Positions 14,101 to 48,344 of a DNA stretch of 64,000 bases are shown piece by piece. The notes under the pieces were generated by a model, which saw nothing but the letters and a program-made list of their open reading frames with translations, was not told the origin of the DNA and did not search any database. Where the stretch lies: the NCBI GenBank assembly GCA_964187785.1, contig OZ076412.1, positions 46,686,001-46,750,000 on the forward strand, written 5' to 3'. A program made the translations under genes and the position numbers. This DNA comes from Amphiscolops sp. MND2022. Taxonomy: Eukaryota. Numbering within the stretch: position 1 is the stretch's first letter; each line of letters opens with the position of its first letter.

Positions 14101-15913
14101 TCAACAGAAAGTTTCACAACTTAACGCTATTAATCAGAAAGAAACCAGAATGGATTACAAAAAATATAAACAGTTGGAGAAAGAAGACCCAACAGCAGAA
14201 ACACTTGCCCTGACAAATAGATGGAAAAAACTGGCCAAACCGAACGATTACAAAATGAAGAATGGAGTCTGGAAGAAATTTAACCCCCCGAAATTTCACC
14301 GAAAGAACATTAAACCAATTAAAACACTTAAACCAATGGAACTACACCAAAAGATAAACAGACTCATCTGGAAAAGAATGGAACAACAAAGTAAAGATAC
14401 CCCGAAGAAAAAAGCAGACGAGAAGAATTGTTCACAGTGATTGATGAAATCAGAAACAATCCAATCCAAAACAACACGATCGAGCAAAAGACCAGTAAGG
14501 ATACGCTAACAGGAGAAACGAACGGATAACCATAGCGAAGAAACAACATCAACCAATGCAAACGACTCAATGGATGTACCGGCAATAAATTTTTAAAAGT
14601 ACCTAGGAGCGACGGGAGTTAGGTACATTCAAATGGGGCAAGCAAGTCACGTCTTCGAAAATAAGGAATGGAACTTAGAAGAAACGATAAGGCAGGCAGG
14701 CCGAGCAGAAATTTTCAACGGATCTAAAGATGATCGCAATGGAGACTACAAATGATGACAAAGTGTTAAAAACAAAAGTCTGCCAGGAACGAAAAATAAC
14801 GGCACAAATCCTAGACGAATACAAACAGAACACCAAAAATCTGTTAACACGATTAGTGCCAAGAACCTTGAGAAACTCTGTGATTACTCTACTCCATAAA
14901 GCACACCCTTCGATCAACAAGATATCACACGCTATTTTGGTGGCCAAAGATGAACAAAGAAATCCAACAAAAATGTTGGACGGATGTATACCCTGCAAAA
15001 TGACAGGTAACAACAATAAGCCTCAATTACGAATGACAGGTTAATTACTTACCACCAACCAAAAAACCAAACCAAGAAATCCACTTGGATTTCATTGGAC
15101 CAATACGATTTAAACAAAGACGATTATTCCTTTTAGTATCAATAGATCGATACAGCAGATGACCCGCAGCATACATCTGCGAAACAACTACAGGCAAAAT
15201 GCATGAACCTAAATGGTATATCACATACCATTAGAACAGGTAAAGGCACGGCCTTTACAGTAAAAGAATTTAGAGATTTTTGTAAAAACATGAAGATCAA
15301 ACTGATATACGGAACACCGCCTATACATACATCAAACGGTCTCGTGGAAAGGGGTATTAAAACGCTAAAAACTGATAAGTAACAGACGCACACAAAAATC
15401 ACCAGGATAAATCAACTTGCAAATGTACTTAGAGAAGTTGGACGAGTCAGAGGAAACACAACACAAGACCGTACTACTGAAGAGGATCCAAATGTCATAA
15501 GAGTAACCGACAAAATGGTAATACTGATTAAATAAATTGAACAAATAGAAAACACGAATCAAAACACAAATAACGAACTAATTACACGAAAATCATCAAG
15601 GAGTAAATCTGTAAATCCTATAATACGTTTGGGTAACCCAATAACACATTAATTATTGTACGAACCACAGTAAACAAGTGGGACCAGCAAAACGACCAGT
15701 TGAACAACTAGAGTAGAAGGAACCGGAGTGAAAGCGGAGATTGGCGGAGACCCACAGCCAATAAAAAAGGAGTAGAAGAAAACCGGCGACAGCAAAAGAA
15801 GAAAGAATCTGACCATTCTCAACAAAACAAATTGTCTTGTGCCAATTATCTATTTAAGTTGTCATGTAAACAATTATTTTATATATACTTATAGTACCTT
15901 CGCAAGAGGGGAA

Positions 15914-16138
15914 TGTGACATTATCACGTATTGCGTCACTATTGTGTTCAGACCATAGAGGTCATCGTTGTATTTAGACAGTCAAGTACCTGTCAGCATC
16001 TAAGTTAACACCGCTTGTACATGTATATTATTATTATAGGATAACGTTCATATGAAAGTCAGTTGACATAGAACGCGATACGAATACATTGTTGGAAGCT
16101 GATTCTCCTTTAGTTTACCATTATGATGATATAGAACA
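15914..16138 (+). repeat. 3' LTR of Mag-like element 1
   Basis: Direct repeat of 10912-11136, preceded by a polypurine tract. Confidence 0.9.
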
Positions 16139-22212: not shown

Positions 22213-22419
22213 TGTTGTATTCTAGCTCATCGATATCAAAGAGATGTTTTCATATAAACTCAACTGTATTCTAGCTTATTACCAATACTCTATGATGGGG
22301 TATCATTTGCACTAAAGTGGCAGTTATTTAATAAAAGAGCATCATAGGTTGGTATATAATAAGTACAAATTATAGACAATACGGTAGACTAATTATATAA
22401 ATTGTCTGTATTCTCTTCA
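22213..22419 (-). repeat. 3' LTR of Mag-like element 2
   Basis: Direct repeat of 28064-28267, plus 3 extra nt at the outer end. Confidence 0.9.
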
Positions 22420-22490
22420 TTCCCCCTCTCACTATTGGCTATTGTTCGGCCAATGGGGTGCTGTTCTTTTGCTGTATGGCGGTAATTCCT

Positions 22491-25400: not shown

Positions 25401-27990
25401 GTTTTGTTAGAGCGGTTTCGTTTAATTAGTGGCTCTAATGCTTGATGATCCGTCAAGAATTTAATTGGCTGACCGTAAATATATAAACGGAAGTGTTCTA
25501 AACCCCACACTACTGCCAATAATTCGAGTTCGTTTATCGCATTTTTTTTTCTGTATCCGATAAAAAACGACTCCCGCAACCGATAGGTTTTAAACTTCCG
25601 TTCGGTTGTTCTTGCCAAAGAGTTGCCCTAGGCCTTTGGTGCTTGCGTCGGTTGTTATTACGTTTGGGTAATCAGAATTATAGTGTGCCAGACACGGTAT
25701 TTCCGTGATTTTTTTTTCAAGTTTTCAAAGGCTAGTGTGAGTTCTTCTGTCCAGATCCAATTGTTGTTCTTTTTCAATTGCTGTCTCAAACTGTCTGTTT
25801 GGGCGGAAAGGTTGTCAATGTATTTTGATAAATACTGAATGGCTCCCAAGAATGATTTTAATTCTTTCTCGTTGTTCGGTTGTTTTGGTTCTTTTATCGC
25901 CAATAGCTTGTCTTGTAATGGTCGAATTCTGACCTGATCAATTCGGTGACCTATCCATTCAATCTCCGTTTTGAAAAATTCGGGTTTTGTTTCGCTCAAT
26001 TTATATCCGGCGTTTTCGAGTTTTGTTGGGACGTCGATCAGTTCTCTCATATGTTCTTCTTTGGAACCTTTTGTTACCACAATGATGTCGTCTAACCATG
26101 CTGGGTGTTTGTTCTCCTGTGTCTGGTCAATTTTTTCCTGAAAGATGGTCGGTATATCCGCTAACCCAAAAAATCCCTTGAGGAAACGGTAGTAACCGGT
26201 GAAATTTCCCCCCGGTCACGGCGAATATGCACAGGTTTCTGGCTGCTCTCGAGAGTTTTAGCTGACCGTATGCGTAGTCTAAATCGAATTTGGAAATCCA
26301 TATTTCGTCCGCTGGGCTATCTGCTATTTTTCTCGATATTCTTGAGATTAAGTCCTCCATGTTCGGCATTTGCGCTTTTCGTTTCACGGTTATTTCGTTG
26401 AAATTTCTTTAGTCTAATGCAATTTTTACGGACTTGTCTTTCTTTACCGTAATAACTGCTGGGCTCACAAAGCAATTCTCGTCGTTGTTATTGGCTTTTT
26501 CAATATGGCCTTGTTTTATTAGCTTTTCTATTTCTTTTTCCACCGATTGTTGTAAGTGTATCGGTATGGGTCTTCCTTTCTGCTGTATCAATTTCGCGTC
26601 TTTTTTCAGTTGTATTTTCACTTCTAGCCTGTATACTGTATGGTTTTCGTTGAACAGTTTTTTGAATTTCGTTTTCAATTTTGTTACATCCGGGTCTTCT
26701 TTTATTTGGTGTATTTGTGGAGCGGTTTTACCGGTCTCTAGTGTTATCCCCAGTTTTTCCATCCAATCCGGTCCCAGTAGGGGATTTGTTTTTCTTCGTT
26801 GTGATTAAGAGTTATAATTCCTCACGGGTTCCGTTGATTTCTACTTTCGCGGTTGTTTTCCCTTCGAATCGTATTCGGTTTTCATGTACGTCCCTGTATT
26901 CCGTTTTCAGAGGGCGTAACGGTGTTATTTTGTTGAATTGTGACTTTGATATCAGCGTTACTGGGGAACCGCTGTCTATGATGAATTTGATTGGTCGGTT
27001 GTTGACCAATGCGGTGACTGTGAAGAATTCCGGTCCATTTTTATTCGTTGGCCGGGTTGAATGTATCTTTTGTTTCACTGAATTGACTGTGTTTGGTGTC
27101 CAGTCATCTTCACCGGCGCTGCTTGTTTCGCCTTCCATTAAGTGGTTCACTTTTCTATTTAAGCGGCAGCATTTGGCAAAGTGGCCAATTTTACCACACT
27201 TTGCGTATTTCTTTCCTCTGGCGGGACATTCGTTTTTCTAGTTGTTCCTTTGTGGCTTTCGTTTTTCGTTCATTAACGTACCGGAATTTCGTTTTTCTTC
27301 TGTTTCAGGTGAGTCGTTCATTTTTTCATACATGTATTCATGTATTGCGTCAGTTATGGCTTCCACAGACATGTCACTTTTTCTGATTATCTTTTTTAAA
27401 TCATAATCACCGGTTGATTTACCGATAAGTGACAAAAATTTTGATGCTAAGAGTTCTGCTGCGGTAATTGTTTCGAATTCGCAGTTCTTTTCTACATCCA
27501 GTATCCGTTTCCATACATCTGCTGCAGTTTCGCCGTCTTCCCGTTTCAAGTCAAAGAAATCGGCTCTGCTGTGGTGTACGTTTCTTTCTGGTGTGAAATG
27601 TAGTCTGAAAAGTGTGTAGAGTTTGTATAGTGGTAGTGAGCTCGGTTCTCTTTCCCTGACCGTTTTTGTCATTTCCGTGATAGCATTTTGCCTGATTGCC
27701 CAGATAAAAATGTCTTTTATATCTGTTTCGAGTTGATCACGGTTTTGTGGTAAGATCTCTTTTCTGTTTGTCATAATTGACAAATCTATTTCCTTCGTCA
27801 TCTTTATGTATTAGACGAATTTTCTCCACCACATACTTGCATTGGTTTGGTCTTGCTTTTCTAGCGTGGGAATGGTGAGCTTTTGGGTGCAGGTCCGGTC
27901 AACCGTCCTGTTCATTGTCTCGTTCGGTAGTACTTGTCTACCTCGCTGCGTTCCCGTTGACATCTGTGTGCTTTCTCCGTCTCTCGTATT
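22491..27990 (-). pseudogene. Fragmented gag-pol of Mag-like element 2
   Basis: ORF fragments from 27811-27999 down to 22491-22964 follow gag-PR-RT-RNaseH-spacer-integrase order, with many frameshifts. Confidence 0.9.
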
Positions 27991-28063
27991 TTCTTCCATA
28001 ATGAATGGTGTCTGTTGTTTTGAGTGGTTCGTGTATAGCTTTGGGGCTATTCTGACTGCGCCA

Positions 28064-28267
28064 TGTATTCTAGCTCATCGATATCAAAGAGATGTTTTCA
28101 TATAAACTCAACTGTATTCTAGCTTATTACCAATACTCTATGATGGGGTATCATCTGCACTAAAGTGGCAGGTATTTAATCAAAGAGCATCATAGGTTGG
28201 TATATAATAAGTACAAATGATAGACAATACTGTAGACTTATTATATAAATTGTCTGTATTCTCTTCA
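28064..28267 (-). repeat. 5' LTR of Mag-like element 2
   Basis: TG..CA, directly followed on the minus strand by the PBS. Confidence 0.9.
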
Positions 28268-31104: not shown

Positions 31105-31824
31105 AGATTGCTGTGGGGAGATATTATTCGCAAGGGCGCTTACTTAGAAAAGCAGAACTGCTTAATCGCCGTCTACCCCGCGGAATTGGGGAAATAAACT
31201 TTCTTCTTGCTTATCTGTTTATCGATAAACCAGCAGAAGATATTTTATCTCAAAAAATTCCGGAGCCGTGTATGCTCTGCAGCACTGCTTACAAAGTATG
31301 TTCTGCAGAACTAGAAAAAGAGGTGCCGGAAAACAGTCTGAGTGCAACAGGTTTTATTACCGTAAAACGAACGCGTCAAATTTACTCTCGCAAATATCTA
31401 CGAAACGGATTTTCCGAAAAAAATTTAAAATATGCCTCGGCGGCGATAACCTTTTTGTTGCCTGCCGGTTTGGTCTCACTGTATTATCACTTTTTTATGA
31501 TGTTTTAGCATCAGAATTTTGAAACCACATGTTTATCTCTTTTCACTCTTAAATTAAGTAAAATTATTCAATTCAACACTGATAAAAATGCTATCCACTG
31601 GGTTATGTGATCGGTTTAATTGTTTGTGTACCAGTTTCGAAAAGATCAATTGATTTTCTAATTGGTAGATTCAAGACGCTTTTCTTTTAGCGCTAACATT
31701 GAAATTAGTTAGGCAATAGTCATCAATTTGAGACCCATTTGATAATTTAAATGTGCGGTGAAATGAATGTGGGGAGAAATGAACGTGGGTCGAAATGAAT
31801 GTGGGTTGAATTGATATGGGGTGG

Positions 31825-33495
31825 TGTAAGGACTAACGTCCGGATGTTCTCTCAGGTCACAAGCGGACCTTGAGTCCTTCTTTGTCAATCTTGTATTTGT
31901 GTTCTCCCATGCGCTTCTGACTCCATCCTCATTTAAGGACGTACCCGGCTCAACGCCATGTTGACCCAAAGGCAAATTTTCTACCATATTCTGTATTTCC
32001 GGAATAATTCTCTCACTTATAGCGGAACTAATGGCCCTGGTAATCTGTGATTGCATTAGGTCCATCATAGCCTCCATCTCGCGCGACATCCTAGCATTCA
32101 TTTCACCAGATAGTGTATTGATAGACTCTATCAGTCTACTTTCCCTAACGGGTTCGTTTCTACGATCGATGTCTCTAATCTCATTTTCTTGAGATGAATT
32201 TTCTCTGTTTGGAAAGGACTGAAAGTCTCGCTGTCCCTCAGGGACATTAATTAAGCTATCAAGTTCTCTTTCTATAGAGTTGGAACTTCTCCCACCTAGC
32301 ATCACGTCCATGTTGCCGTAGTCGGACAACATATCTAATTCTCTAGATTTTCTAGACTTGGCCTTTTGTCTCCTCGTAGAAGGCATTGAAAATGTTTATC
32401 CAGGAGTAAATATGTGAATTGTTCCTGTGGACAATATAGAGCTTGGTCTACAGTAATTCTTGTACAAATCGCATAAGAGTAACTGAATATCAACCGTATT
32501 ATAAATCAACTCTTTTTACGGTCAACTTGGGCGTATTTATACTCAAGTTAGCATGACATCTGAGATTTCGTCGGTCATGCTACTAAAAATAGCACACAAG
32601 CTAAAAATAGATACAGTGAAACTATTATTAGCAACATGACATCATTTTAGACTTGTGCGGGCGGCTAGATCAAAGAGCCTTGCGAGGCCGCAGCGGGGCA
32701 TGCCGTTTGAACGGCTGAAAGGGTTTACATGTTTGAATCAACACTACATGTATACATAATCTATATGGACCTACATGGCCGATCGTCATGAGGGGCATTC
32801 TACATTCATGGGGATTAAATGATGAAACTGCATTTACTAAGAAAGCTCCGTGTATCCATCATCTAATTACGGTTATATGTATGTAGCAACACTTCATGTT
32901 CAACAGATCAACATTTTCATGTACAATTTCACATAACACTCAATTTGTCGATAGGCCGTGAAAGGCCTTACTTAAAATAATAGCATTAGGTATTCTACTG
33001 GTATATAGCAACTGGTATTTAGCAATTCTAACAATTGGACCACTTAACTCGTAAGCCGAGTCCGTCCTTATTTGCTTGTACAGTTATCAACAAACAAAGC
33101 ATAGCATCAAACAAAGCAGGCCGGTCTAATCATGTGGCCGGACTGGTCCTTTCTTGAGTAAATATATAGCTAGCAACTATGAGTGAATGAGTGAAATTAG
33201 CACTGCTGTGATTGGCCAATTTGCCGTACGCGGCCATATTAGCTATACTGAACAGGCAGCCATTTGAACACGTTTCCTTTCTGCCTGTCAGTATAACTTG
33301 CTGTCAAATATTATCACAACAAATTAAACCAAATTTACATGTATTGTAAACAGTACAAATATTATAACTAAAAGTTTTCAAACTTATTGTTAATGCATTG
33401 ACAGTTTTACTGTAGCGGCAAAGTGCCAGGTAGGGCGTTCTGTCTGCTGGCATCAATTGTGTAAAGATTGCCGTCACAGGCGGCAGCCTGAGACA
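31825..33495 (-). repeat. 3' LTR (1671 bp) of the complex Gypsy element
   Basis: Direct repeat of 44735-46401. Confidence 0.97.
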
Positions 33496-33847
33496 CTCCC
33501 CTTGGGAGTAGAAGAAAAGTGCCAATTTCCATCCCTTCAAGGAATGCCATCCTCCTCGCGTTGAATTGTTGTAACGACTCGTTGGGAACTGCGGTTTTGT
33601 GCATATAGTCAATGACTGCCTCATCTTTGATCTGTTCTACAGATTTTCCGCATACGACGCAGTCGGAATAACCAGCTAGTGATTTTGTCCCGCTTAGTCC
33701 CATTCCTTGGAAGTGTTTCGTGATAGCTTCTATGTTCTGCACAGGGTTCTGGTGTTGATAGCCATGGGCGTCACAATACATTATAGAGCCTGTAGGACAG
33801 CTTGGTCCTCTCTCATGCAGTGGCGGGGACAGAGGGGTGTCTACCAT
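33407..33847 (-). CDS. Accessory ORF-B (146 aa, Cys/His motif), overlapping the PPT and the start of the 3' LTR
   Basis: ATG-initiated; YCDAHGYQH...DCVVCG; the last 89 nt lie inside the LTR. No recognised homologue. Confidence 0.55.
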   Translation of the reverse strand: MVDTPLSPPLHERGPSCPTGSIMYCDAHGYQHQNPVQNIEAITKHFQGMGLSGTKSLAGYSDCVVCGKSVEQIKDEAVIDYMHKTAVPNESLQQFNARRMAFLEGMEIGTFLLLPRGVSQAAACDGNLYTIDASRQNALPGTLPLQ

Positions 33848-33887
33848 AGGGACTAAGTTCCTGCATAACGTAATAGGGTGACCGTCT

Positions 33888-34283
33888 CTAATCCTGTCGT
33901 CTTAATCTAATCCTGAGTATTGGTCCATTCCCTCTTCCCAAAGAGAAATAAGATGAGTCAATTAACGGTCTTGGGGTGTTCGGTCTCGTGGGCATTCCGT
34001 GGCTCGGAAGCCCAGTAGGGACAACCTCTTCAACCTCTTCCTTAGATCTTACTGCACAGGACAGGCCAGGGATGGGGATTGGTGCTGACATCTCCATTTC
34101 CACACATTTAGCCATTAGTCTAATTTCCTCGTCTTCTTCCTCTCCTTCGGACGAAAATTGCAAATCTAATACTGATGTCATACTCAAGTCGTCCATAAGT
34201 TCGTCTTCGTCGCTAGATATGATTATTACGTCGTCCCCAGCGGGCGCTGCGCCTTGGAAATCTTCGGGGTATAAGGCAGCCAT
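33888..34283 (-). CDS. Accessory ORF-A (131 aa, acidic, SIM-like motif)
   Basis: ATG-initiated; DDVIIISSDEDE motif, acidic tract and basic C-terminus. Confidence 0.55.
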   Translation of the reverse strand: MAALYPEDFQGAAPAGDDVIIISSDEDELMDDLSMTSVLDLQFSSEGEEEDEEIRLMAKCVEMEMSAPIPIPGLSCAVRSKEEVEEVVPTGLPSHGMPTRPNTPRPLIDSSYFSLGRGNGPILRIRLRRQD

Positions 34284-34382
34284 GTATCTCTCCTTTATTA
34301 TCGTTTTTGCAATTTTGAATGCAATAGGACAGTTTTAATTCGGTTTGAGTAGAGTAACTGTTTAGTTTGAAAGTTAGGAGGC

Positions 34383-34705
34383 AAATGGCGATTTTCATTT
34401 CTCAATTTCTCGATAATTTTGCTTCACATTTTCCCGGTCTTTCGTTTCCCGCATCATGTTTCATTGACGAAACTTTCAAAGATGTTCTTTGATATAGACC
34501 GCCTTCCGCTTTGTTGACCGACGATCAACTTCAGCTTGCCTAAGTCGGCAAAGAACCTTCAAGGACTTCGTCTAGTGTTTATCTCCACTTGATATCCACT
34601 TGAGAATTTCAAGAGAGGGTGATGAAGTTTTATGGCCACGCGCGGCGCATCGCCGCGACAGCCAATGGGAATCGCCCACCTGGTCCGCTTTTCAAAATGG
34701 CGGAA
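34383..34705. promoter_or_regulatory. Candidate internal (bidirectional) promoter of the Gypsy accessory region
   Basis: CpG-rich patch at ~34635-34705, CCAAT at 34662, YY1-like CAAAATGGCGG (34693-34703) and AAATGGCG (34383-34390), lying between divergent ORFs. Confidence 0.35.
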
Positions 34706-35382
34706 TTAAAAATAATAATCCAAATAAGGAAATAATAAAATAACTAAAAACAATGAAATAACTAAGGTAATAAAATAATGAAAATGCATGTTTCGAAATA
34801 TAACTAATGTGGATTTCCCTGGCAGATTCCATCCACAAAATAATTCTCATAATTGTAAAAATATTTGACATCAAATCCAGTTTGCCACGAACTCCAACTT
34901 TGCAATCACTTTCATCTTCAATTATTAGTTGTTGTATTTTCAAATTCGTATTTATCCATTATTCAGTTCACTCTCAACCTTGTAGTCTCCCAGTCACAGT
35001 TACTTGTATTTATTTGGAGCAGTTTTATACCTCTTTTTGGACTCCCAGTCTACATATCCCAATTGTGTGGAATATTCAGGCGCCGCTTATACTTCCACCC
35101 TTCCTTTGCGGGCACTTCATTTGTGTTTGTGGATTGCAGCTATCTCTTGCAGCCTACCTCCCAGACCATTCTGCCAATTTGAGTTTCCCAAGTAAGTTGT
35201 CTTTTTTGATTTTGAACTGAAATAGGCTTGATCAGGGCTCTCTTCAGATTCACGTACTTACTGTCCAATAAGACGTGTTTTCACAAGTGTTCAAATGTAT
35301 CTACTTCCGGAAGATTTTAATGCGGTAAATGGATTCGTATTCAGGAAGAATTCCGCTAAATTTTATTTCCTTTTATTTAGGA

Positions 35383-36828
35383 ATGACAACTGAAACCCAA
35401 GGCACGTCAGGCGTCACGTCAGAGGATAGCCGCCCAGAAGAATTGGATCAAGCTGTGCCAGGCAGTGTTACTACGGTCAGTGAACCTCGGCCTCCTTCCA
35501 ATTTCTCTGGCTCTAGTGCAGCCACTGAAGAAAGCCTTTCAACTTACGCTGAAAGGACGATGAAGGCTATAATTGCTCGAGACCAACCCGAGACCTCTGG
35601 AATTTCTGCCCTGCTTTCCCCACTAAATGAGCAGACTGAAGGAACCTCTGGAGGAAAAGATGTGGAGCAAAGGCGGCCTGGTACTAGTTCACAAAAAGAT
35701 TCTGAAGAGTTGCAACGCACTGGTGTGGAGAAGACCGTCTTCGGACAGGTAGAACAAGATGATACGAGGATAGTCAGCATTCCAGTCGTTGGTCGCTCGA
35801 TCGATCCCGCGCTGTACTACACTGACACGAGCGGAACTGAGGACTTGTTGGACAGCTCCGGCGTTGGTGGGCCTGTCACTCCCCAATTTAAAAACATCCC
35901 TACCCTCGTCAAAGTTCCTAGACAGAGAGGAGAGTCGACTAGTGAGGGTGAATCCTCCAATGGGCTTCCTGGGCCCAGTGACCAGCAGTCGAAGGCACCA
36001 CGACAATTTTCTGCCAGTGGGCGGACTTTGCTGCGAAAACATTTCGTAGAGAAGGACCCGATTGTGACTCCTCGGAATCACCCCGTCATCGCTCTCACCG
36101 AGAGCCAGATCCACACAGTCATGAAGACTATCTCGGACGAGACCATCTTATCTTCCTTCCACCTTATGAAATCTCTCCTCTTACAGGCCACGTCAGGGAA
36201 GGTCTTGACCAAGGAGAAGTGCAGGCACGTAGGTGGACATGCACCCGGGGGCAGACGAAGTCCCAGTAGCTCAGGAGATGAGACGACCGACGTTGATTCG
36301 CCCAATGAAGGGTACACCAGTGGTGCCTTCAACACCGACGATGAGCCCGGTAGTTTGTCTTTCTGTTTGGAGAAGGAGACTGAAGGACGTGAGTCTCTTA
36401 CCGCAACTTCTGAACAACCCCGCACCATTACAGAGAATCCAGCTGCAAGGCGAGATACATCCATGAGTCCTGGTAGTAACTACAGCATAGGGGATTATGC
36501 CCCATTATCCAGCCTCGTCTCAAAGCCTGGTAAGGCCGTGCAACAAAAGAGTCCCCCTCGTAAGCGTAGGAAATTCATGGGAAAACCGGGTAAAACTATG
36601 AAAGAAGCCTACTTTAAAGGCATCCTTTGGACAAAGACATTCGTCACAGGCCCCCTTGATCCTGCGCATAACCAGTACAAATTCTACTGTAGACTTTGCA
36701 AGAGTAACGTGTCAATTTACTCTAAGGGTGCCAGGGAAATCATAGTTCAGAGACTAACATTGACTTGTCCTATTTTAGCCACAAAGTCTCGAGTGGACAA
36801 TCCTTTCAGACGATCTGTACCCTGCTAG
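35383..36828 (+). CDS. Antisense accessory gene, part 1 (S/T/E/P-rich region, NLS, partial BED/TTF-like zinc finger)
   Basis: 499-codon open frame (35329-36828) with the likely ATG at 35383, 2 nt after acceptor ccttttatttag (35380). Contains PPRKRRK and WTKTF...KFYCRLCKSNVSIYSKGAREII. Confidence 0.7.
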   Translation: MTTETQGTSGVTSEDSRPEELDQAVPGSVTTVSEPRPPSNFSGSSAATEESLSTYAERTMKAIIARDQPETSGISALLSPLNEQTEGTSGGKDVEQRRPGTSSQKDSEELQRTGVEKTVFGQVEQDDTRIVSIPVVGRSIDPALYYTDTSGTEDLLDSSGVGGPVTPQFKNIPTLVKVPRQRGESTSEGESSNGLPGPSDQQSKAPRQFSASGRTLLRKHFVEKDPIVTPRNHPVIALTESQIHTVMKTISDETILSSFHLMKSLLLQATSGKVLTKEKCRHVGGHAPGGRRSPSSSGDETTDVDSPNEGYTSGAFNTDDEPGSLSFCLEKETEGRESLTATSEQPRTITENPAARRDTSMSPGSNYSIGDYAPLSSLVSKPGKAVQQKSPPRKRRKFMGKPGKTMKEAYFKGILWTKTFVTGPLDPAHNQYKFYCRLCKSNVSIYSKGAREIIVQRLTLTCPILATKSRVDNPFRRSVPC

Positions 36829-36987
36829 GCTGGAATTCTTCGGTCGACTGGTCCGGGATTGTAAGTAGCGTTAATAGTCTCCAGCCTGCTTACTTGATTT
36901 ATCTGACGTAATTTCGCAGTTTGTCTCTACTGTATTGGTCTGATAGCTTGACTGTCTTAGTGTCCATTTCTAGATCATTTCTGACAG

Positions 36988-38142
36988 GCTACATTTCAAG
37001 GCAACTCTCTCTGTTTAGATAACAAGTGCTTCAGTCGGAGCATGATGAAACGCAGGGACTCGGGCTTTTTCACTTTCGGAGAGTTGTGTCGTTACCTGCG
37101 GAAACTGTGCAGTCGAGCCATCCTGCCGAAGCATACCCCGGCCGATAATGACTGGTCAGGCTTGTTGCAACTTTCTTTAGATGATTGCCGAGAACTGTCT
37201 TTCCGTGATTTCCTCTCTCGCCTCAAACTGAAGTTCGATTTAGAAGCGGCCTCCGAAGCTAAAGCTAAGAAGGAGAACAGTGGAAAGAAGAACTTGACTG
37301 CCGTCCTTAGCGGGCTCACAGAGGCTGTGAGGGACACGTTCGCCGGTCAAGCACGCAGTTATATCGTGTTTGTAATTGATTCCCTTCTCAAGGACATTCG
37401 GTTGACAGCTGGCATCGTTCGCGGTCTGGGCAGTTTCGACCTCACTGTACTACAAACACAGCCAATGGAGCAGGCCTTATTTTGTTTTCGAGCTTTATTC
37501 CATAGTTTCCAAATTCGAGGATGGGTCCAGGAAAATGAGGAAAGTGAGTACCGGGAGGAATATGTTGAATTCCTCGATCATTTGCGGCATTCCTGTGGGC
37601 CTCTCAGGACTCCCGAATCCGTCCCTGACATGGTCGATTTTTTGATTTCAATGCCAGCCTTACGTAGCAGGCCTCATCTACTGCGTTTGTTCAGACTCAG
37701 CTGTTTATGCCTGACTGAGACTAGTCCTGATCTGCCGCCAATTCGTTTCCAGGGAGCTGATTCCTCTGATCCTAACTGTCGGTTGACCAATATACTTCGA
37801 CCCGCACAGTCTTATTTGGCCGTGGTACCCAATTCCGTGACTTCCTGCGTGACTGAGGCTGCCCTCACTAAGTTTCGTGATCTCGAGATGCGATTTGATT
37901 CTGGAAATGTTCCTGGGGACCCATGGGCTAATGTGGACGCTTTCGGTCAAAGCAAGTACTATAGGGCCTTGTTAACTGCCTTCAAGACACAAGGTAATGA
38001 GGTCAGTGTGAGCAGAGTTATCCGGAGTCGCTCTTCTTCTGTCGTCAACGAAGGCTCCGATTCGACTTTCCGGTCTCCTGGGAAATCCGTTAAGCTGGCT
38101 CGCGATGGAGTTATTCCGCTACAGAAGTTACCAAAACTGTGA
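36988..38142 (+). CDS. Antisense accessory gene, part 2 (helical, hAT-C-terminal-like region)
   Basis: 366 aa ORF from 37042, open upstream to acceptor tttctgacag (36987). EYREEYVEFLDHLR...VDFLISMPALRSRPHLLRLFRLSCLCL resembles the hAT dimerisation region (recollection only). Confidence 0.65.
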   Translation, partial: ATFQGNSLCLDNKCFSRSMMKRRDSGFFTFGELCRYLRKLCSRAILPKHTPADNDWSGLLQLSLDDCRELSFRDFLSRLKLKFDLEAASEAKAKKENSGKKNLTAVLSGLTEAVRDTFAGQARSYIVFVIDSLLKDIRLTAGIVRGLGSFDLTVLQTQPMEQALFCFRALFHSFQIRGWVQENEESEYREEYVEFLDHLRHSCGPLRTPESVPDMVDFLISMPALRSRPHLLRLFRLSCLCLTETSPDLPPIRFQGADSSDPNCRLTNILRPAQSYLAVVPNSVTSCVTEAALTKFRDLEMRFDSGNVPGDPWANVDAFGQSKYYRALLTAFKTQGNEVSVSRVIRSRSSSVVNEGSDSTFRSPGKSVKLARDGVIPLQKLPKL

Positions 38143-38343
38143 AGGAGTTGCAGGGAGGATCCGCTAAGCATTAAATGTACATAAAGTACATTTGTTATTC
38201 TAGACTTTGCATTTGTAAATTTCCAATTCTGTCCTCTTGTTCTAGTATTTATATAGTTAGTTTCTTTTGAGTCAAAAGGTCAGAGTAGTCCCTGTAAAAA
38301 AACATGTCTTCTTGGGCAATAACATAGATAGGGACATAATTTA

Positions 38344-41300
38344 TTATTTCTGACTAGTATCTGTATTCATCAGTATAGTTGGGGTTGGGGTTATGTCGGA
38401 GGTTATATTTCCCCCCCTAGGGCTAGAATTTTCATCAGTTTTTTCATTTGCTTTTTCATTCGATATTCCGGGCACGGTAATATCATCCCCCTCATTAAGA
38501 GAGTTTTTCGCGCCATCTAATTCATTTGTGACGTCATTCACGTTCTTTTCTGAACTAGGTGGTGTATTGCCATCATTGTGGTTATTTCGGCTAGTGGCCG
38601 TTCTCGGCTTTCCTGTTTCGCTGCTTTGTTCATCTCGCGCAGCATTCTTGTTAACGTCATGTTTGTCATGCAATATAGGTGAGTCTCGGCTAGCGGCCGT
38701 ACTCGGTCCCGCTTCATTTTCATTCATTTTGGTTCGTTCATTCAATTCGGTGACGTCATTTGCGTCTCGTGTAATTGTGCCGTCTCGGCTGGTGGCCGTC
38801 CCCGGCCTTACCGCGTTGTCATCAGCGTTGTCATAAATGACGTAATCACTAGTCGTGACACCAGCATCGCTGTCTGGTGTTTGCGATTCTTCGTCCGTAT
38901 TATCGTCTCGTCTCGGCTCGAAGACATGGTAGTCAAAATCTGCTTCCCATGAGATGGTGTATAAATCATCTTGCGGTATGATTATTTCATCATCTGGTTG
39001 CAATTTCTCTTTGGCATCTTTGTCCTCTAAAGACGTGTTAGGAACAAATTTTTTCAGGCGGATTCGGTGTAGTATCTGTGTTTTATTCGTATTTAACCGG
39101 CGGACAATGTAATTGTCGTTAGGTAATACCTTTTCAATTCGATAAGGACCGATCCAGCGATATTCTCTGAATGGTATTTTTGATCCTTGATTGTCCGCTT
39201 TAGGTTGTAGGATAAAGCAAAAATCTTGTTCACTGAGAGGAGCTGCTTTGGCCTTTCGGTCATAGTACTCCTTATATTTCAAGTAGGACTGCATAATGTT
39301 ATGCTTCGTTTTGTCAATGAGAACTTTCGTTCTCTGTTGTAATTCTTCAGCAAATTCAGTAGTCGGGAGGAAATCCTTATTAGGATTATTTCCAAGTTTA
39401 TGATCAAGAACATTATAGGGAATTCTTCCGTGAAAGACCTTGCTCGGTTCACAACCGATGCTGGAATGATAAGTTGTGTTATAATTGAGCACTGCTAGTG
39501 GCAAATATTTGTGCCATTGACGGCGATATTCCCCTGAGGCCATTTTCAAATTTGTTTTCAATGAGGCGTGAGTTCTCTCGAGTTTGCCAATTGTTTGTGG
39601 ATGTTTAGTCGTCGCATATTTTAGGGTTATTCCCAATACTTGCGTTATCTCTGCAATAATTTTTGATGTAAAAGCGGTTCCTTTGTCGGTGATGATCGTA
39701 GTTGCAAATATGAGTGCTTTGTCATGATGTCTATTAAGACCTTTGCCGTGTTAGAGGCTGTTGCCTCAACTAGCGGGTAGGCAAACAGATATCTTGAAAA
39801 GACATCTATTGCTGTCATCACTGTTTGGTAACCTCCGCTTGTTGGCAAGTTTGGGAGTAAATCGATTTGCATTGCGTCCTCTGGTCCAAGGTCCCATTCT
39901 GGCAAGTTAAGCAATTCGGGCGTTATCGTGTTGTTTGGGACCCGTTTATCTTTTGCGCAAGTTACACATCCTTCTACCCATTTTTTAACGTGTTTTGCTA
40001 TACCGGGGTAGTAGTATTTCTGTCGTATTTCTTGTAACATTTTCGATATACCCGGGTGTTTGTGCGCCGTTCCGTGTAAGGCCTGTAACAATTCTGTCAA
40101 AAGGTGTTTTGGTAAGAGAACTTGGTGATACTTGACTTGTCCAGTTTCATCATAATATTGTCGTGTGACTATTTCGTCTTTAAGGACTATTCGGTCCAAG
40201 TTGTTAAGGTAGTGTTTGTATCGGATATCTTGCTGGAGTAGTTCTTCAGAATAGTCTTCGTTCTGAATTTTGGCTTTGAGTTTGCGCAGTATAGGGTCTT
40301 TGGATTGTTCAAGTAAAATTTGATTCGTTCTGCGCATTTTTTGGGTAAAGTTCGTAATTGCATCTACTAAATTTTCAGATATTGCGTCAATTTGAATTAC
40401 GCCTTCTTGGTCGATTGGGTTAGTTCGGCTTTGTTTTTTACGCTCCCAAATTTGAGCTTCTGTCTCATCATCTTGCTCCGTGAAGAAAACCTGTTCCTCT
40501 TCAGCTACGCCTGCCGATTGGACATTGACCTCGATGGGCTTAGTCTCTATGTCTTCTCGGATTTTAAGGACTAGTTTCTCTCTGGGGTCCGTTTCCATGC
40601 GAGATAAGTAGTCAGCTGCTGTGTTGTTTTTCCCTGGTATATGTGCTATGACAAAGTTGAATTGTATTACATAGTCACATGCATTCCAGAGTGTTGGAGG
40701 GATTATCTTCGTCTGGAAGAATCTCGTGACCGATTTGTTGTCCGTTAGGATAGTAATCGGTTTAGGGGCTCCCCAGTAAATATGTCCAAATTCTTTGAAT
40801 GCGTAGTAAATTGCTAAGAATTCCTTTGCGTATATAGACATTTTGAGTTGCGATGGCGTAAACGTTTTTGAGCCATATGCAATTGGAGCGTATGATTTTT
40901 TGACAGATGAATATTTCTGGTTTGGGTCATTCTCGGTAAGTATGGCGTAGCCGGCCGCTGTGAAACTAGCGTCCGTCATCAGGACCAGTTGCTTGTTTGG
41001 CAAGGGTTGCTTCAGGGCCAATTGGCTACATTTGTCGAGGTCCCGATTGATTTCATTGAACTGTTGTATTAGTTCTGTGGTCACCAGGACTTTTTCGTCT
41101 TTTTTGAGAAGTTGAAAGAAAGGAGCTAATTTTTCAGATAATCTTGGGATATAGTTCCTGTAATAATTGAGGAAACCAAGATATCTTTGTAGAGCTTTTT
41201 TAGATTTGGGGAATTTGGTTTTTTCTAGGAAGTTGGTTATTCGCTCCTTTTGTGGTTTGACTCCCTCCGGAGTAATTGTTCTCCCCAAGAAATCGATTTC

Positions 41301-43592
41301 CGTTGCCCCAAAGTGGCATTTGTGCATTGTCAGTTTAAGGCCAGCATGCCTAATGCACTCAAAGGTTGCTTTCAAATTTTTTATGAGATGATCCGCATCA
41401 TTGGCGGCTATGCCAATGTCGTCGACATATTGGGCACATTGATCAGCTTTGATAACTTTATCGAGGTATTCCCTCATAAAACTTGAAAATGCTGATAATG
41501 CCCTGCTAAGGCCCTGGGCAAGTCGTCTATACGCAAAGGTGCGGCTTGCAAAGTTGAACGCAAGCATCTCAACGGACCTTTGGTCCGCCATTGGTAGGCA
41601 GTGATATGCTTGTGAACAGTCGAGTTTACAGAATAGTTTCTTTCCTGCCATATGTTGTGCAGCGTCCGTTAGGGTACTAACCGGATGATTGTTGTTTATA
41701 TAGTCATCCGAAATGAGGTTATTAATTTTCCTCAGGTCGACTAGTAGTCTTAGCTTCCCATTCGGCTTTTTCTGTGCGAATATGGGACTGGCGTATTTCG
41801 AAAATGGCAGTGTAGTTATTATGCCATATTTGTGTAAGAGGGCCAGTTCGACGAGTATGTCCTCTTTTAAATTGACTGGAGTTGGGAGACTTTGGCTGTA
41901 AGCAGGCGAATCGTCCTTAGGGGTCAGTTTGACCGTGAATTCTTCATTCATTCCGATGTCAAATCTGTGTCGTGCGAATATGTCATGGTATTCGACTAAA
42001 AGTGATTCGATCTTTTTGATTTCATGTTGTTGCAGCATGGAGTCTTTCCAGTCGAAATTGCCAAGGAATTTGCGGCGTGACTCATCATCATTCTGAGGAT
42101 TCAGTTGTTCAGCTTCTTGGAGGTTTCGTAATTCTTGAAGAATTCGTCGTTGGATGGGAGTTTGGGAATCTTCGTCCCCTGGGTTTTCTGACGTAGGAAA
42201 CCAGTACTGTTCATATTGGTCATTGTTCCGATTAGCCTTGAGTAGACTACTGACATAGTAGATCGCATCCTCTTCATTTTCATTGAGGAGATGCCATGTG
42301 GACACCGGGTCAATTGGTTTGACGTGTTTCATCTGTTCCGGTGTTAGTACAGAAAAGTTTGCTATGTGTAGTCCCTTTTTAAGCTTGTACGGTTGGTCTG
42401 TGAAATTGTTGATATGAACGTTAACGTTTCCATTAGTCAATGTGACTATTGCGGCACAGAATGTGATGTCGCCTTCTTCATGGAGGACATCACTGGGTTG
42501 CAACACACCTGTGACCGTGTTTTCATTGTAGATTTGGGATTTGATCTCTACTAAGGTACGGTCATTGGGTGGTATTGTGATGTCGTCAGGGTTAAGTATT
42601 GGTTCCAGTACGTTGGAGTATTTATGGTCAGCCGTTTTGAGTTGCATCGAGAAATATGGGAAATTGAGTATGCCTTGTCGCATGTCTAGTACTGTATGAT
42701 TCCTCTGGAGGAACATTAGTCCTATGATAGGGCCAGTCAGTTTTTCCATTACTATAAATATTTCGTGGAATTCAATATCTCCGACTTCGAACTTGAGTTC
42801 AACAGTGCTCTTTGGGGTTTCCAATTGTCCATTTGCGACCATAATTTGAAATGTCGGGGCAGGTCCCTCTTTGACTATGGATTGGGGCGCCAATAGGCGT
42901 ATTTTCCTGAGGTCTGCTTCCGGAATTGCGCTGGAGTGAGCTCCAGTGTCTATGAGGCCGTCTATGGTTAGTTCCCCAAAGTCCATCGGGAAATATAGCA
43001 TCCGTTTTTTGTATTTGAGTCCGAGGTTTGTGGATAATGGTATGTACGCTGGTGCTCCCTCTTTAGTTACAAGGACATGTATGAAGGCTGTCTCGTCGAG
43101 GAGGCCAGGTGTGGCCTGTGTCTCTTCTGCATGTGGCTGATCTTTGATTGCATCAAAATTTGGTTTCCACGGTTCGATAAGTGCCCGGGACAGTATGGTG
43201 TCTACAATGTCAGGGTCATCCTCATCGTCTGTTGGCGGGTAGTCATCATTCCGAAATTGTAAATTGTGTTTATCGTATAAATCATCATCCCAGTACGGGT
43301 CTTTGCCGTACTCGGGGTCGTAGTATTGGGGGTTGTAGTCTTCGACAGTTTGTAAGGGTCGGAATTGGGTTTCTGAGTCTTTAGTAAGGTTATTACGTCG
43401 ATATAGGTATGGGTGGTCACTGTGAAAAAATATATTGAGTTTGAGTACAGGCTTCCACCATCTGCTGCTGCCAGACAGTCGATGGGGTCCCTGTGATGTT
43501 CTTTTGTGATTGCTTATAAGCGATGTTAGCTGGGTCAGATATGACATATTGTCGTATCGACATTTGGTCAGAGATTTGGAGTCGTGGCAAAA
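38344..43592 (-). CDS. pol: Pol of the complex Gypsy (protease, RT, RNase H, integrase, acidic tail) with one frameshift
   Basis: LIDTGA, QYVDD, TDAS...ADYLSR, HKHPG...CVTC, IDLLP/IDVFSR, KLERTH, WIGPY. An apparent 1 bp deletion near 39704 (HSYLPTTIITDKG in the restored frame) splits the 1300 aa and 430 aa ORFs. Confidence 0.95.
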
Positions 43593-45296
43593 TTAGTTTT
43601 TTGATTCAGGTTTTTTGGAATTCGATTGGCCTGATGAGGATGTTGTGGATTTTTCATTCTTGGTGCGAGTGCCTTCGTCTTCAGAGGGCTCCGTGTCTTT
43701 GGAGGAGTCTTGTCTATTTCTTTTTGGACGAAGATGGGCACCAGCGCCACGCCAACATTTCTCTGCTGGGTGATTGGTTTTGCTGCAGGTGGGACATTCT
43801 GGATAAGTTTGTCGTTGAGGCTTCTTGCCGTCTTTGGCCTCTGATTCTTTCTTCTTTTTCAGTTTTGGACAATTTTTCCAGAAGTGGTCCTCTGCCTTGC
43901 AGTATGAGCATTGGTTATTTTTGTTGGTGTCGATGCCATTAGATAGTAAACTTCGGGATTTGTTGGACGACGAAGCCATTGTAGCAATGGGTAGGTCATC
44001 AGATTCTTCTAATGCGTTTAACTCGAGTTCCCGTTCCAGATGTGCCACAATCTCCTCGTAGGTCCCGTTTTCCAGTCGAGCCATATTTACTGATCTTTTG
44101 AGTTTTGGGGGTAATTTAGCATACAAGAGACTGTCGATCATGCTTTTGGCGTTTTCCCCAAAGGCCTTCTCGGCACCCTGGTTGAGTTCCTCAAGAAAAT
44201 CGGGTAGTTTCATCGTGTTGGGATCAAAGATGAGCCTATGCCACTTATGTTTAGCTGTGGCTTGAGACTCGGGTTTGACGTACTTTCTGCGGAATATGAC
44301 CAATACGTCTTCTAATGTTTGACGGTTCATGGAGTTTACATTTCGGAAAGTTTGCAAGGCTCCTTTCCTGAGCAGAGAATGAAAATGGTTTATTTTCATT
44401 TGTTCAGTCATGGCGGGCTGCATCTTTATCATTGTATGAAATAAGTCTTCAAACAATTCAAATTTCTCTGTTTTGCCGTCAAATGTCATGGGGTTCGTCG
44501 TGACTGGTCTAATTGTCATCGAGTGTGGTTTATTTTGGAGGTTTACCAGGACATCTGCCAATCGGTTGATAGGGTCTTGTGGCTGTTCTGCCGGAGCAGG
44601 CTCCGCTATTGGCAGAGTTGTATCCAGAGTTGTATCATGAGTGGATTCTTGTCTTTGGAGGTCTGGCTGAGAGTGAATTCGTCCTGTGAGGAATTCAGGA
44701 ATCGGCTGTTGGAGTTCGGTAGCTCCTGTCACCATGTAAGGAGTAACGTCCGGATGTTCTCTCAGGTCACAAGCGGACCTTAAGTCCTTCTTTGTCAATC
44801 TTGTATTTGTGTTCTCCCATGCGCTTCTGACTCCATCCTCATTTAAGGACGTACCCGGCTCAACGCCATGTTGACCCAAAGGCAAATTTTCTACCATATT
44901 CTGTATTTCCGGAATAATTCTCTCACTTATAGCGGAACTAATGGCCCTGGTAATCTGTGATTGCATTAGGTCCATCATAGCCTCCATCTCGCGCGACATC
45001 CTAGCATTCATTTCACCAGATAGTGTATTGATAGACTCTATCAGTCTACTTTCCCTAACGGGTTCGTTTCTACTATCGATGTCTCTAATCTCATTTTCTT
45101 GAGATGAATTTTCTCTGTTTGGAAAGGACTGAAAGTCTCGCTGTCCCTCAGGGACATTAATTAAGCTATCAAGTTCTCTTTCTATAGAGTTGGAACTTCT
45201 CCCACCTAGCATCACGTCCATGTTGCCGTAGTCGGACAACATATCTAATTCTCTAGATTTTCTAGACTTGGCCTTTTGTCTCCTCGTAGAAGGCAT
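43593..45296 (-). CDS. gag: Gag (567 aa) of the complex Gypsy, starting inside the 5' LTR
   Basis: Retrotransposon gag core (FDGKTEKFELFEDLF...) and two CX2CX4HX4C knuckles (CSYCKAEDHFWKNC, CPTCSKTNHPAEKC). Confidence 0.93.
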   Translation of the reverse strand: MPSTRRQKAKSRKSRELDMLSDYGNMDVMLGGRSSNSIERELDSLINVPEGQRDFQSFPNRENSSQENEIRDIDSRNEPVRESRLIESINTLSGEMNARMSREMEAMMDLMQSQITRAISSAISERIIPEIQNMVENLPLGQHGVEPGTSLNEDGVRSAWENTNTRLTKKDLRSACDLREHPDVTPYMVTGATELQQPIPEFLTGRIHSQPDLQRQESTHDTTLDTTLPIAEPAPAEQPQDPINRLADVLVNLQNKPHSMTIRPVTTNPMTFDGKTEKFELFEDLFHTMIKMQPAMTEQMKINHFHSLLRKGALQTFRNVNSMNRQTLEDVLVIFRRKYVKPESQATAKHKWHRLIFDPNTMKLPDFLEELNQGAEKAFGENAKSMIDSLLYAKLPPKLKRSVNMARLENGTYEEIVAHLERELELNALEESDDLPIATMASSSNKSRSLLSNGIDTNKNNQCSYCKAEDHFWKNCPKLKKKKESEAKDGKKPQRQTYPECPTCSKTNHPAEKCWRGAGAHLRPKRNRQDSSKDTEPSEDEGTRTKNEKSTTSSSGQSNSKKPESKN

Positions 45297-46401
45297 TGAA
45301 AATGTTTATCCAGGAGTAAATATGTGAATTGTTCCTGTGGACAATATAGAGCTTGGTCTACAGTAATTCTTGTACAAATCGCATAAGAGTAACTGAATAT
45401 CAACCGTATTATAAATCAACTCTTTTTACGGCCAACTTGGGCGTATTTATACTCAAGTTAGCATGACATCTGAGATTTCGTCGGTCATGCTACTAAAAAT
45501 AGCACACAAGCTAAAAATAGATACAGTGAAACTATTATTAGCAACATGACATCATTTTAGACTTGTGCGGGCGGCTAGATCAAAGAGCCTTGCGAGGCCG
45601 CAGCGGGGCATGCCGTTTGAACGGCTGAAAGGGTTTACATGTTTGAATCAACACTACATGTATACATAATCTATATGGACCTACATGGCCGATCGTCATG
45701 AGGGGCATTCTACATTCATGGGGATTAAATGATGAAACTGCATTTACTAAGAAAGCTCCGTGTATCCATCATCTAATTACGGTTATATGTATGTAGCAAC
45801 ACTTCATGTTCAACAGATCAACATTTTCATGTACAATTTCAGATAACACTCAATGTGTCAATAGGCCGTGAAAGGCCTTACTTAAAATAATAGCAACAGG
45901 TATTCTACTGGTATATAGCAACTGGTATTTAGCAATTCTAACAATTGGACCACTTAACTCGTAAGCCGAGTCCGTCCTTATTTGCTTGTACAGTTATCAA
46001 CAAACAAAGCATAGCATCAAAGCAGGCCGGTCTAATCATGTGGCCGGACTGGTCCTTTCTTGAGTAAATATATAGCTAGCAACTATGAGTGAATGAGTGA
46101 AATTAGCACTGCTGTGATTGGCCAATTTGCCGTACGCGGCCATATTAGCTATACTGAACAGGCAGCCATTTGAACACGTTTCCTTTCTGCCTGTCAGTAT
46201 AACTTGCTATCAAATATTATCACAACAAATTAAACCAAATTTACATGTATTGTAAACAGTACAAATATTATAACTAAAAGTTTTCAAACTTATTGTTAAT
46301 GCATTGACAGTTTTACTGTAGCGGCAAAGTGCCAGGTAGGGCGTTCTGTCTGCTGGCATCAATTGTGTAAAGATTGCCGTCACAGGCGGCAGCCTGCGAC
46401 A
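44735..46401 (-). repeat. 5' LTR (1667 bp) of the complex Gypsy element
   Basis: TGTCGCAGG...TTACA, followed directly by the PBS. Confidence 0.97.
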
Positions 46402-47245
46402 GGTGGAATGAGTTTGGGCTGAAATAAACACACACCTTGAACCATTGAAGGCGTGAAAAGTATTTTAGAGTTGTAGTTACTCTTGCTCTTACTCTTGCGA
46501 TGTATGGCACGTAAGGTATAAGTGCTCAACAAAGTGACTTCATAATATGATTTTTTTGCCTTTCAATTCGTTAGCAGTGATTTTTATATTTTGCGGATAT
46601 TTTTCAAAATTATGTCACCGACAATGCGTACTGGAACAAAAGTTTTTGAAACTCAGAAGTGAGACGTGTTAGTTAATTAATCGGAGAAATAGCACATGAC
46701 GTTTAGTTGACTTATGGTTTAAAAATTAAAATGTGTTTTTTGAATATTATACCAAATTGCCACGGTTTCTAGACCAAAGTTGCCTTGATTTCAGATATTA
46801 TTCCCTGTATCCGTGGTCTCTACATTCTATTACTGATCGAAATTACCCAGAATTCGGATCTAAATTGTGCATCTAAAGAGTTTTAATTGAGCAGCTAAAG
46901 ACCGAATTTTTATACCGAATTGCCACGATTTTGAAGGAGACTAGTTAGAGTTTTCTAGATCTAAGAAACAAATTTCATGCCGTAGGTACTGTTCAAACCA
47001 TCGGTGGCCACTGGTGGTCACAGCAAAAGCTGCAGATGCCACCGGAGGAACTTCAGTGGTGACCATCGGTAGACTGCGACTTGGTTACAACCCGGGCCAC
47101 AAATGGTCAAATAAAAACAAATATTTAATATCTTTAATGTACAACAAACTAATGTACGAATAAAAATTAAGAACTAATTATATTAAAAAGAGAAAATGAT
47201 TTCAACTGGTATGATTATTCCTGAAAAAGTGTCTTTGTTGAACAG

Positions 47246-47491: not shown

Positions 47492-48344
47492 GTTATTATT
47501 GCGTAAAATTTGCTTTCTGTCAGTGTTCTTGTTATGCGGTTCATCCGTCCTGACCTCATATATTTGAATCAAACGGTTTTTTTACAAAATTTGCCAAGCA
47601 CCAAATTTATATTTAACTTCAAGGGTGTTACCCATAGAATTCAACTCACATAAATTTAGCTTCGTGCGATTTGTATTTGTGGAGATTTCTGGACTTTTTT
47701 AGTTGGACCCCAAGGACCTCAACCCCAAGGACCTCATAATGACCTAAAAATGACCCAAAAAAGACCCCAAAAATGAGAAAATTTGCAAAAGTGTCCAATT
47801 TTTACGTTTTATTGCAAATTTTGTCATTTCTTTGATAAAAATCGTAGATTAGAATGTTGAAAAGCTTCAACAAGGCAAGAATTAGTTGTCCAGTAGTCGT
47901 TTATGATTGAAGAGACAAATGCAGTTTTTCTGGAAAGAAAGAGACCTAAAAATGACAAAAAACTATGAATTTTCCAATTTTCAAAGTTTTTATGCATTTT
48001 TTGTTAAAGTTTCGACAGACTTCGAGGATTGGAATGTTTTAGGGGGTCAACAAGGAAAAGGTTGGTTGTCCAGTAAATAATTGAAGAGATAATTGCAATA
48101 TTCTGAATGAAAAAATTTCAAACCGACACCGAAAATGACAAAAAACTCAAAATTTTCCAATTTTAAAGGTTTTATGCATTTTGCCCCAATTGTTTGACAG
48201 ACTTTGTGGATTGGAACGTTAGAAAGGGTCCACAAAGGAAGAATGTGTTGTCCAATAGGCTTAGAAAAAATATAAATGCAGTTTTTCAAACTGACATCGA
48301 AGTATACAAAATTTCAAAAAATTCCCAATTTTCACTATTTTTGT

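Follow-up and report, generated by a model that had tools for sequence, protein, structure and literature searches.

Spliced antisense transcripts have been described in deltaretroviruses, among them hbz of human T-cell leukaemia virus type 1 (HTLV-1), APH-2/3/4, and AS1/AS2 of bovine leukaemia virus (BLV), according to the accessible part of the source (PMC10186651). The hbz transcript is antisense as well as spliced, so that its intron persists in the provirus. For gypsy elements, the accessible parts of two papers report that gene23 of Grande has its own promoter and a nuclear product, and that TRP28 is labelled 'transposase 28' (PMC11963269, PMC7264820); the word 'intron' is absent from both main texts, one of which calls for a search for spliced antisense transcripts. 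The locus analysed here lies in a stretch of 64,000 nucleotides (nt) from Amphiscolops sp. MND2022 (assembly GCA_964187785.1, contig OZ076412.1, positions 46,686,001 to 46,750,000 of the forward strand), called the window throughout. It contains a Ty3/gypsy LTR retrotransposon on the minus strand (31825 to 46401), and the space between the pol stop and the 3' LTR of this element is occupied by a plus-strand gene together with a sense open reading frame (ORF), ORF3. Comparison among copies strongly supports an intron-containing gene that lies antisense in the retrotransposon and is copied with its introns. The explanation favoured, with moderate confidence when taken as a whole, is a gypsy lineage whose antisense gene of six exons is under purifying selection, probably goes back to a single capture from a hAT DNA transposon and likely encodes a catalytically dead, DNA-binding nuclear regulator of the element.

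The gene was read from sibling copies, in which it consists of six exons and five introns, with exon lengths summing to about 1,210 amino acids (aa). With the exons of one copy as reference, intron ends were predicted solely by protein alignment in 26 divergent elements whose exon 6 shares 33-71% protein identity. The 104 intron positions in these elements yielded 96 intron calls and 5 lengths of zero, and 3 positions were uncallable. The called introns begin with GT and end with AG in 91 of the 96 cases, as opposed to 5 of 1,152 controls in which both ends were slid by 1-6 nt; their lengths range from 66 to 190 nt, and their positions and phases are constant. A wider count over 112 loci gave GT-AG at 107/110, 107/108, 76/78 and 102/103, in a set where many loci are near-identical and not independent, one locus with a miscalled intron 5 (L087) was dropped and the family labels of the divergent clade are unreliable, the 26-element test being its clean repeat. 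That a spliced antisense gene runs through this retrotransposon family is thus regarded as nearly certain from the comparison. Its introns would escape splicing from the genomic RNA, an expectation of established retroelement biology that agrees with all the data. Three distant protein homologs (P0056, P0114 and P0126) show no insertion at the intron-2 position, which they read through, but end at the intron-3 position.

The junctions of introns 4 and 5 are fixed precisely by natural forms that lack them. Intron 4 is absent in 24 of 24 callable loci of one family (family C) and also in L159, L163 and L165, and intron 5 is absent in L169 and L171. In the trees these intron-lacking states are nested among intron-bearing relatives, two independent precise losses being the simplest reading. 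In addition, a database protein from a short contig (P0048) runs uninterrupted across the intron-5 position. The frame of the 82-nt exon 5 has 56-96% identity to other families, without stops and with changes clustered at third positions, whereas the frame chosen by the initial annotation has 26-56% identity to seven distant families, with stops in six of the seven. A four-intron model, with a 327-nt exon 4 and an acceptor of the 36987 type, was rejected after comparison of frames and acceptors across families. In the subfamily of the window and in its sister, the frame of this model is open, and a minor alternative splice with that acceptor may occur there.

The window copy of the gene is broken. 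At 36744/36745 it lacks 1,243 nt that are present in 29 of 29 fetched sibling loci (the DNA search for siblings gave 40 scored matches among 435 candidates); lost are the rest of exon 2, introns 2 and 3, exons 3 and 4, and the 5' part of intron 4. The frame from the ATG stops at 36826, exon 6 is frameshifted near its end and stops at 38142, and pol and ORF3 are frameshifted as well as this last exon; the family gene was therefore read from siblings. On the plus strand, exon 1 ends at 35191 and is followed by intron 1 (35192 to 35380, 189 nt) and by what remains of exon 2 (35381 to 36744), which starts its frame at ATG 35383 and encodes a long low-complexity N-terminus, a basic patch and the first half of a C2H2 BED-like finger. 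A 3' remnant of intron 4 (36745 to 36778, ending in the acceptor TTTTAG) leads to exon 5 (36779 to 36860), whose 82 nt make 27 codons plus 1 nt and are read as ...EFFGRLVRD. Intron 5 (36861 to 37018, 158 nt, phase 1) separates it from exon 6 (37019 to 38174), which has 384 codons in siblings and is predicted to be all-helical, its middle best matching the C-terminal part of Hermes transposase. The family stop codon, TAA at 38172-38174, overlaps a 9-bp palindromic hairpin (38172 to 38194) with z-scores of -1.9 to -3.3 in six copies and a two-sided change in another clade (L171, L173).

The initial annotation had proposed two antisense introns within a retrotransposon, 35192-35380 and 36861-36987. 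Their antisense position inside an LTR retrotransposon was borne out by the LTRs and the Pfam matches, and the sequence does hold GTAAGT at 35192, TTTAG ending at 35380, ATG at 35383 and a GTAAGT donor at 36861. Siblings and distant families alike conserve intron 1 and the donor at 36861. The acceptor at 36987 is not conserved, none of 24 distant elements having AG there; the one that is conserved ends at 37018 (phase 1) and follows the 82-nt exon. The phase-0 join through ...VDWSGI falls too, as the ATG frame already stops at 36826 and is out of frame (1,478 nt, remainder 2). The family has five introns, not two, and the window copy has the 1,243-nt loss. ATTAAA at 38170-38175, taken for a poly(A) signal, overlaps the family TAA and is not preserved in the sister subfamily, so that its role as such a signal is unsupported. 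Two further points go beyond what had been proposed, namely the likely descent from a hAT transposase and the precise loss of introns.

Intron 1 was called by pattern in 27 of 32 loci, so that its GT-AG ends are not an independent test. Its conservation is unusually high, 65-81% against 34-61% for the other introns. The start codon shifts between its two sides: where no ATG follows the intron-1 acceptor, as in 18 loci, exon 1 in every case offers an in-frame ATG 3-15 codons upstream, and of the 9 loci that do have an ATG after the acceptor, 8 lack such a codon at that place in exon 1. A further in-frame ATG lies inside intron 1 in 26 of 27 loci (35329 in the window). Over the 17 codons that follow it, the first, second and third codon positions hold 4, 8 and 12 variable columns among 14 representatives. 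The retention of this ATG and the mostly third-position variation behind it suggest a second start inside intron 1, which likely gives an alternative N-terminus from the unspliced transcript. Intron 1 also contains repeated GGAAG/CTTCC motifs, the palindrome CTTCCGGAAG (35304-35313 in the window) and CACGTG-like sites, all kept across families at 33% protein identity. Upstream, the spacer in which the antisense gene and ORF3 face each other head to head (34340 to 35191) has CCAAT, YY1-like and CACGAACTC motifs in the same order across families, the first two names being presumptive. The spacer is likely an internal promoter of the antisense gene, and the conserved motifs of spacer and intron 1 are candidate promoter elements or binding sites.

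The position of the gene is constant. In all 36 loci that were extended to about 17 kb (10 close siblings and 26 elements picked for divergence), the gene lies antisense directly behind the pol C-terminus; in one of these loci pol is reduced to its last 12 residues, in another it has an internal deletion, and two have no visible LTR pair in the stretch. A 5-bp target-site duplication was found in 9 of the 10 close siblings, whose LTR pairs are 97.6-100% identical. Protein searches of the genome list thousands of candidates, figures that are not copy numbers. The ratio of nonsynonymous to synonymous substitutions (dN/dS) is 0.12 for the window's subfamily compared with its sister; the values within family C, 0.03, 0.04 and 0.04, come with a dS close to saturation, and two more pairs were saturated. 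Judged by these ratios, the antisense gene is under purifying selection. A reverse transcriptase (RT) tree of 28 rows shares its deep clades with an exon-6 tree of 29 rows, the latter built by a quick method. The L039-type subfamily changes place between the two, its pol DNA being 76% identical to that of the window and its antisense module 90-92%. The swapped module corresponds to window 35202-38538 in L039-L050, is joined there to a different pol and LTR, and has one boundary inside intron 1. A genome search with the distant homolog P0126 gave matches of 31-36% only; six of these loci were extended, all were LTR-borne, and no free-standing donor was found among the six. Since P0126 is matched no better than this here, the gene family is likely present in other organisms as well.

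That the gene has been retained for long under selection implies that the element benefits from it, and the protein suggests in which way. About 400 low-complexity residues are followed by a basic patch and then by an invariant C2H2 finger, with C-x2-C and H-x5-H in 16 of 16 sequences; zf-BED matched at E 0.35 in 2 of 31, below cut-off. The core exon contains no invariant Asp in 16 sequences. Its likely catalytic sites, tentatively assigned, hold Glu or Ala on strand 1 and Ser or Thr on strand 4, and at exon-6 positions 244-256, where the third residue would be expected, no Glu is conserved (at most 22 of 43); these positions come from hAT motifs and from alignments at the level of ranges, not residues. 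Domesticated hAT proteins act as DNA-binding regulators, and the combination of a finger with a dead transposase scaffold would most simply be a regulator of this kind. In Hermes the catalytic residues are D180/D248/E572, as given in the available part of PMC6027215. The regulatory function is held with lower confidence than either the spliced gene or its hAT origin. The best-surviving alternative, though unlikely, is that the same spliced hAT-derived gene serves the replication cycle and not transcription, its protein acting as a capsid or integration-complex partner, a target-site tether or an RNA export factor. Such a role would agree with the retention of the gene under purifying selection in every sampled lineage, and transposase scaffolds are known to multimerise on DNA. 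Retroviral accessory proteins act in steps of this sort, as the accessible part of PMC7264820 describes. Between deep clades, however, the identity of exon 6 drops to 33% and that of RT stays at 76-88%, and this far faster evolution fits conflict or binding specificity at least equally.

Evidence for the hAT origin comes from predicted folds. The finger and exon 3 were modelled together (pLDDT 51, including a 24-residue natural intron read-through), and exon 6 was folded separately (pLDDT 67). The first model has a predicted RNase H-type strand order, and in Foldseek its finger-plus-core region ranks Hermes chains 1-4 (best E 6e-4). By VIA-align, residues 199-321 of the model superpose on Hermes 143-268 (Z 6.2, rmsd 4.0, 113 aligned), and Hermes matches reach Z 6.0-6.7 across 101-161 residues, the preceding helix included. 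For the exon-6 model, Hermes 426-567 is the top match among 48,161 chains (Z 5.7, rmsd 3.5, 85 aligned), its Z being tied with unrelated rows and all of these Z scores, 5.7-6.7, lying in the range that common arrangements give. Among the Atlas neighbours listed are clusters of FAM200, ZBED5, GTF2IRD2 and DUF4371, at scores of 0.76-0.77, which, being below 0.9, are leads only. Each signal is weak, but the matches are colinear and come from separate models, and the antisense gene is on this ground considered quite probably of hAT transposase origin.

A gene captured from the host, or another RNase H-fold protein with a C2H2 finger, would leave the spliced antisense gene real but not hAT-derived. 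Retroviral integrases match the bare RNase H core at Z 7.1-7.5 over about 80 residues, as high as or above Hermes, and no hAT family is matched at the sequence level: hAT Pfam families were not found above cut-off in scans of exons and alignments, and searches of the Protein Data Bank (PDB) with the sequence of the gene's protein gave no match. Such an origin is nevertheless improbable, a little more so than the replication-cycle role, because only with Hermes does the match continue into the helical region before the core, because Hermes also tops the separately modelled C-terminal exon, in colinear order, and because Atlas points to hAT-derived families. Longer homologs, among the best 120 of 411, were only relatives without Pfam domains. 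The integrase scores and the missing Pfam and PDB matches weigh against the explanation favoured here, and so do the weakness of both fold models, the low Atlas scores and the unspecific range of Z, the Foldseek search with exon 6, which like the Atlas search with it gave nothing significant, and the range-level placement of the catalytic sites. The same applies to the L039-type module swap, which indicates that co-inheritance is not strict, and to the fact that splicing and promoter are deduced from conservation only.

Under a third alternative, the segment would be a nested hAT DNA transposon, still active or hitch-hiking, rather than an accessory gene. The hAT-like domain order and the introns are what such an insertion would bring. 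No conserved pair of terminal inverted repeats with an 8-bp duplication flanks the gene in the 20 loci scanned, 14 of them with a downstream anchor; the best candidates match at 5 of 8 positions, and their positions differ among families. In view of this, of a core without conserved Asp, and of the single place in the element that 36 of 36 extended loci share with agreeing deep trees, a nested transposon is very improbable. The weakest alternative, chance splice signals between separate unspliced ORFs, can draw on some families (L085, L165) in which intron 2 lacks stops and keeps the frame, and is practically dismissed by the excess of GT-AG ends over slid controls, by precise intron absence in two lineages and by freely varying intron length.

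Based on the capture of a hAT gene as the favoured explanation, the following course is proposed. The region between pol and the 3' LTR would have received, in antisense orientation, an intron-containing hAT transposon whose ends were lost later. In the sense orientation, introns would be spliced from the genomic RNA and a poly(A) signal would shorten it; in the antisense orientation both would be without effect on that RNA, so that a single antisense insertion of an intron-containing DNA transposon would explain orientation, introns and ancestry together. Comparison of the loci shows that full-length elements were thereafter copied together with the introns. Transcription would start from the internal promoter, facing away from ORF3, and splicing would yield the protein of about 1,210 aa, with the start inside intron 1 likely supplying its alternative N-terminus. 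The protein would have kept the BED-like finger and the transposase scaffold and lost the DDE aspartates, and would act in trans by binding DNA, most likely at conserved motifs of the element itself, and so either tune transcription or counteract silencing. The two intron losses, whose absences are seen directly, likely arose by recombination with spliced antisense mRNA during reverse transcription, as this mRNA has the polarity of minus-strand DNA and could act as a stray template that leads to precise intron loss. In its boldest form, which is tentative, the proposal states that a class I element domesticated a class II transposase, that the dead hAT gene with five introns became the element's own sequence-specific regulator or anti-silencing factor, binding the motifs of intron 1 and the promoter, and that the lineage records precise intron loss mediated by RT.

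The element itself is a Ty3/gypsy LTR retrotransposon. Self-comparison of the window revealed two direct repeats of 1.67 kb, which are its LTR pair, and a Pfam scan gave gag followed by the order protease, RT, RNase H and integrase. It has TG...CA ends and a 5-bp target-site duplication, GGTGG, at 31820-31824 and 46402-46406. On the minus strand, the 5' LTR (44735 to 46401, 1,667 bp) is 99.1% identical to the 3' LTR (31825 to 33495, 1,671 bp), before which a short run of purines (33496-33503) forms a candidate polypurine tract. The sequence TGGTGACAGGAG, a putative primer-binding site, stands immediately after the LTR in 13 of 14 elements. The gag frame (43593 to 45305, minus strand) has weak DUF1759 and Retrotrans_gag matches below cut-off; it starts about 560 nt inside the 5' LTR and crosses the site resembling a primer-binding site, which starts at 44734, so that the 3' LTR also holds the start of gag. 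The pol frame (38344 to 43592, minus strand), with Pfam matches to protease, dUTPase, RT, RNase H and integrase, is frameshifted near 39700 in the window copy. ORF3 (33407 to 34334, minus strand) has about 297 aa in siblings and two frames in the window, ends inside the 3' LTR and gave no match in Pfam scans; it is kept in all families at 23-55% identity, head to head with the antisense gene, the L039 copy lying at 1792-2682. Elsewhere the window contains a unit of about 1,268 bp in four tandem copies (48344-53372), two more repeat-bounded elements on opposite strands that are about 70% alike (22216-28267 and 10908-16138, with direct repeats of 204 nt and 229 nt), and a MITE-like (miniature inverted-repeat transposable element) inverted repeat of 224 nt at 9787-10320, its arms 98% complementary and 86 nt apart.

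Transposase domestication is known for host genomes, and the 'host' here is likely another mobile element. An LTR retrotransposon can evidently keep a full multi-exon gene for long periods when the gene is antisense. Such cargo is easily overlooked, as ORF-based annotation shows fragments only. Through numerous, almost identical copies and lineages set apart by one intron each, the family provides a natural system for mRNA-mediated intron loss, and it is equally a test ground for the role of antisense accessory genes in LTR elements. Antisense accessory genes (Retand, Grande) and spliced antisense genes (HTLV-1 hbz) were already known; an intron-containing, hAT-derived antisense gene in an LTR retrotransposon, here one with five introns in a gypsy lineage, was not reported in the literature searched, which included few subscription papers and neither supplements nor repeat databases. 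What is accessible of PMC6431247, PMC5408684, PMC8220671 and PMC13547354 describes other captured ORFs and contains no such gene; 'intron' and 'transposase' do not occur in PMC5408684, and the passages on bdelloid elements and Burro have no antisense multi-exon cargo.

Several known systems share single traits with this gene. The ORF3s of bdelloid elements and planarian Burro resemble it in being extra coding sequence after pol, and a dUTPase between protease and RT is a further likeness (PMC6431247, PMC5408684, in their accessible parts). Hermes and the domesticated hAT genes ZBED, FAM200, GTF2IRD2, ZNF862 and DAYSLEEPER share with the predicted protein the order of BED-like finger, helical region, RNase H-like core, helical insertion and C-terminal region, the domain order being that given in the available part of PMC6027215. 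The gene here differs in that it would have been domesticated by a retrotransposon instead of a host, has neither conserved ends nor a conserved Asp in the core, carries about 400 extra low-complexity residues at the N-terminus and is too diverged for Pfam. In plants, the gypsy elements Retand, Grande and RIRE2 likewise have an antisense ORF (TRP28, gene23) behind pol and ahead of the 3' LTR throughout the lineage, and accessory ORFs of this kind are typical of Retand and Grande, but TRP28 (PF04195) is described as restricted to flowering plants in the accessible parts of PMC11963269 and PMC7264820, and Pfam scans of the exons here gave no PF04195 match. HTLV-1 hbz resembles it in being antisense, spliced and carried by an LTR retroelement; with APH-2/3/4 and BLV AS1/AS2 it precedes this gene, so that the persistence of antisense introns, which the initial annotation saw as a natural example, is upheld by comparison but is not the first. 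Engineered retrotransposition-indicator cassettes also rely on the strand asymmetry of splicing; their intron stands in the sense of the element and is removed during retrotransposition, whereas the introns here stand in the antisense gene's own sense and are kept, the opposite arrangement. The spliced and unspliced forms of hbz differ at the N-terminus (PMC10186651, accessible part), and intron 1 likely permits the same here. In conclusion, hbz is driven by the 3' LTR and encodes a 31-kDa bZIP protein, whereas the gene of this gypsy lineage has five introns, a dedicated segment of 4 kb, a product of about 1,210 aa, a likely internal promoter and a probable transposase ancestry.

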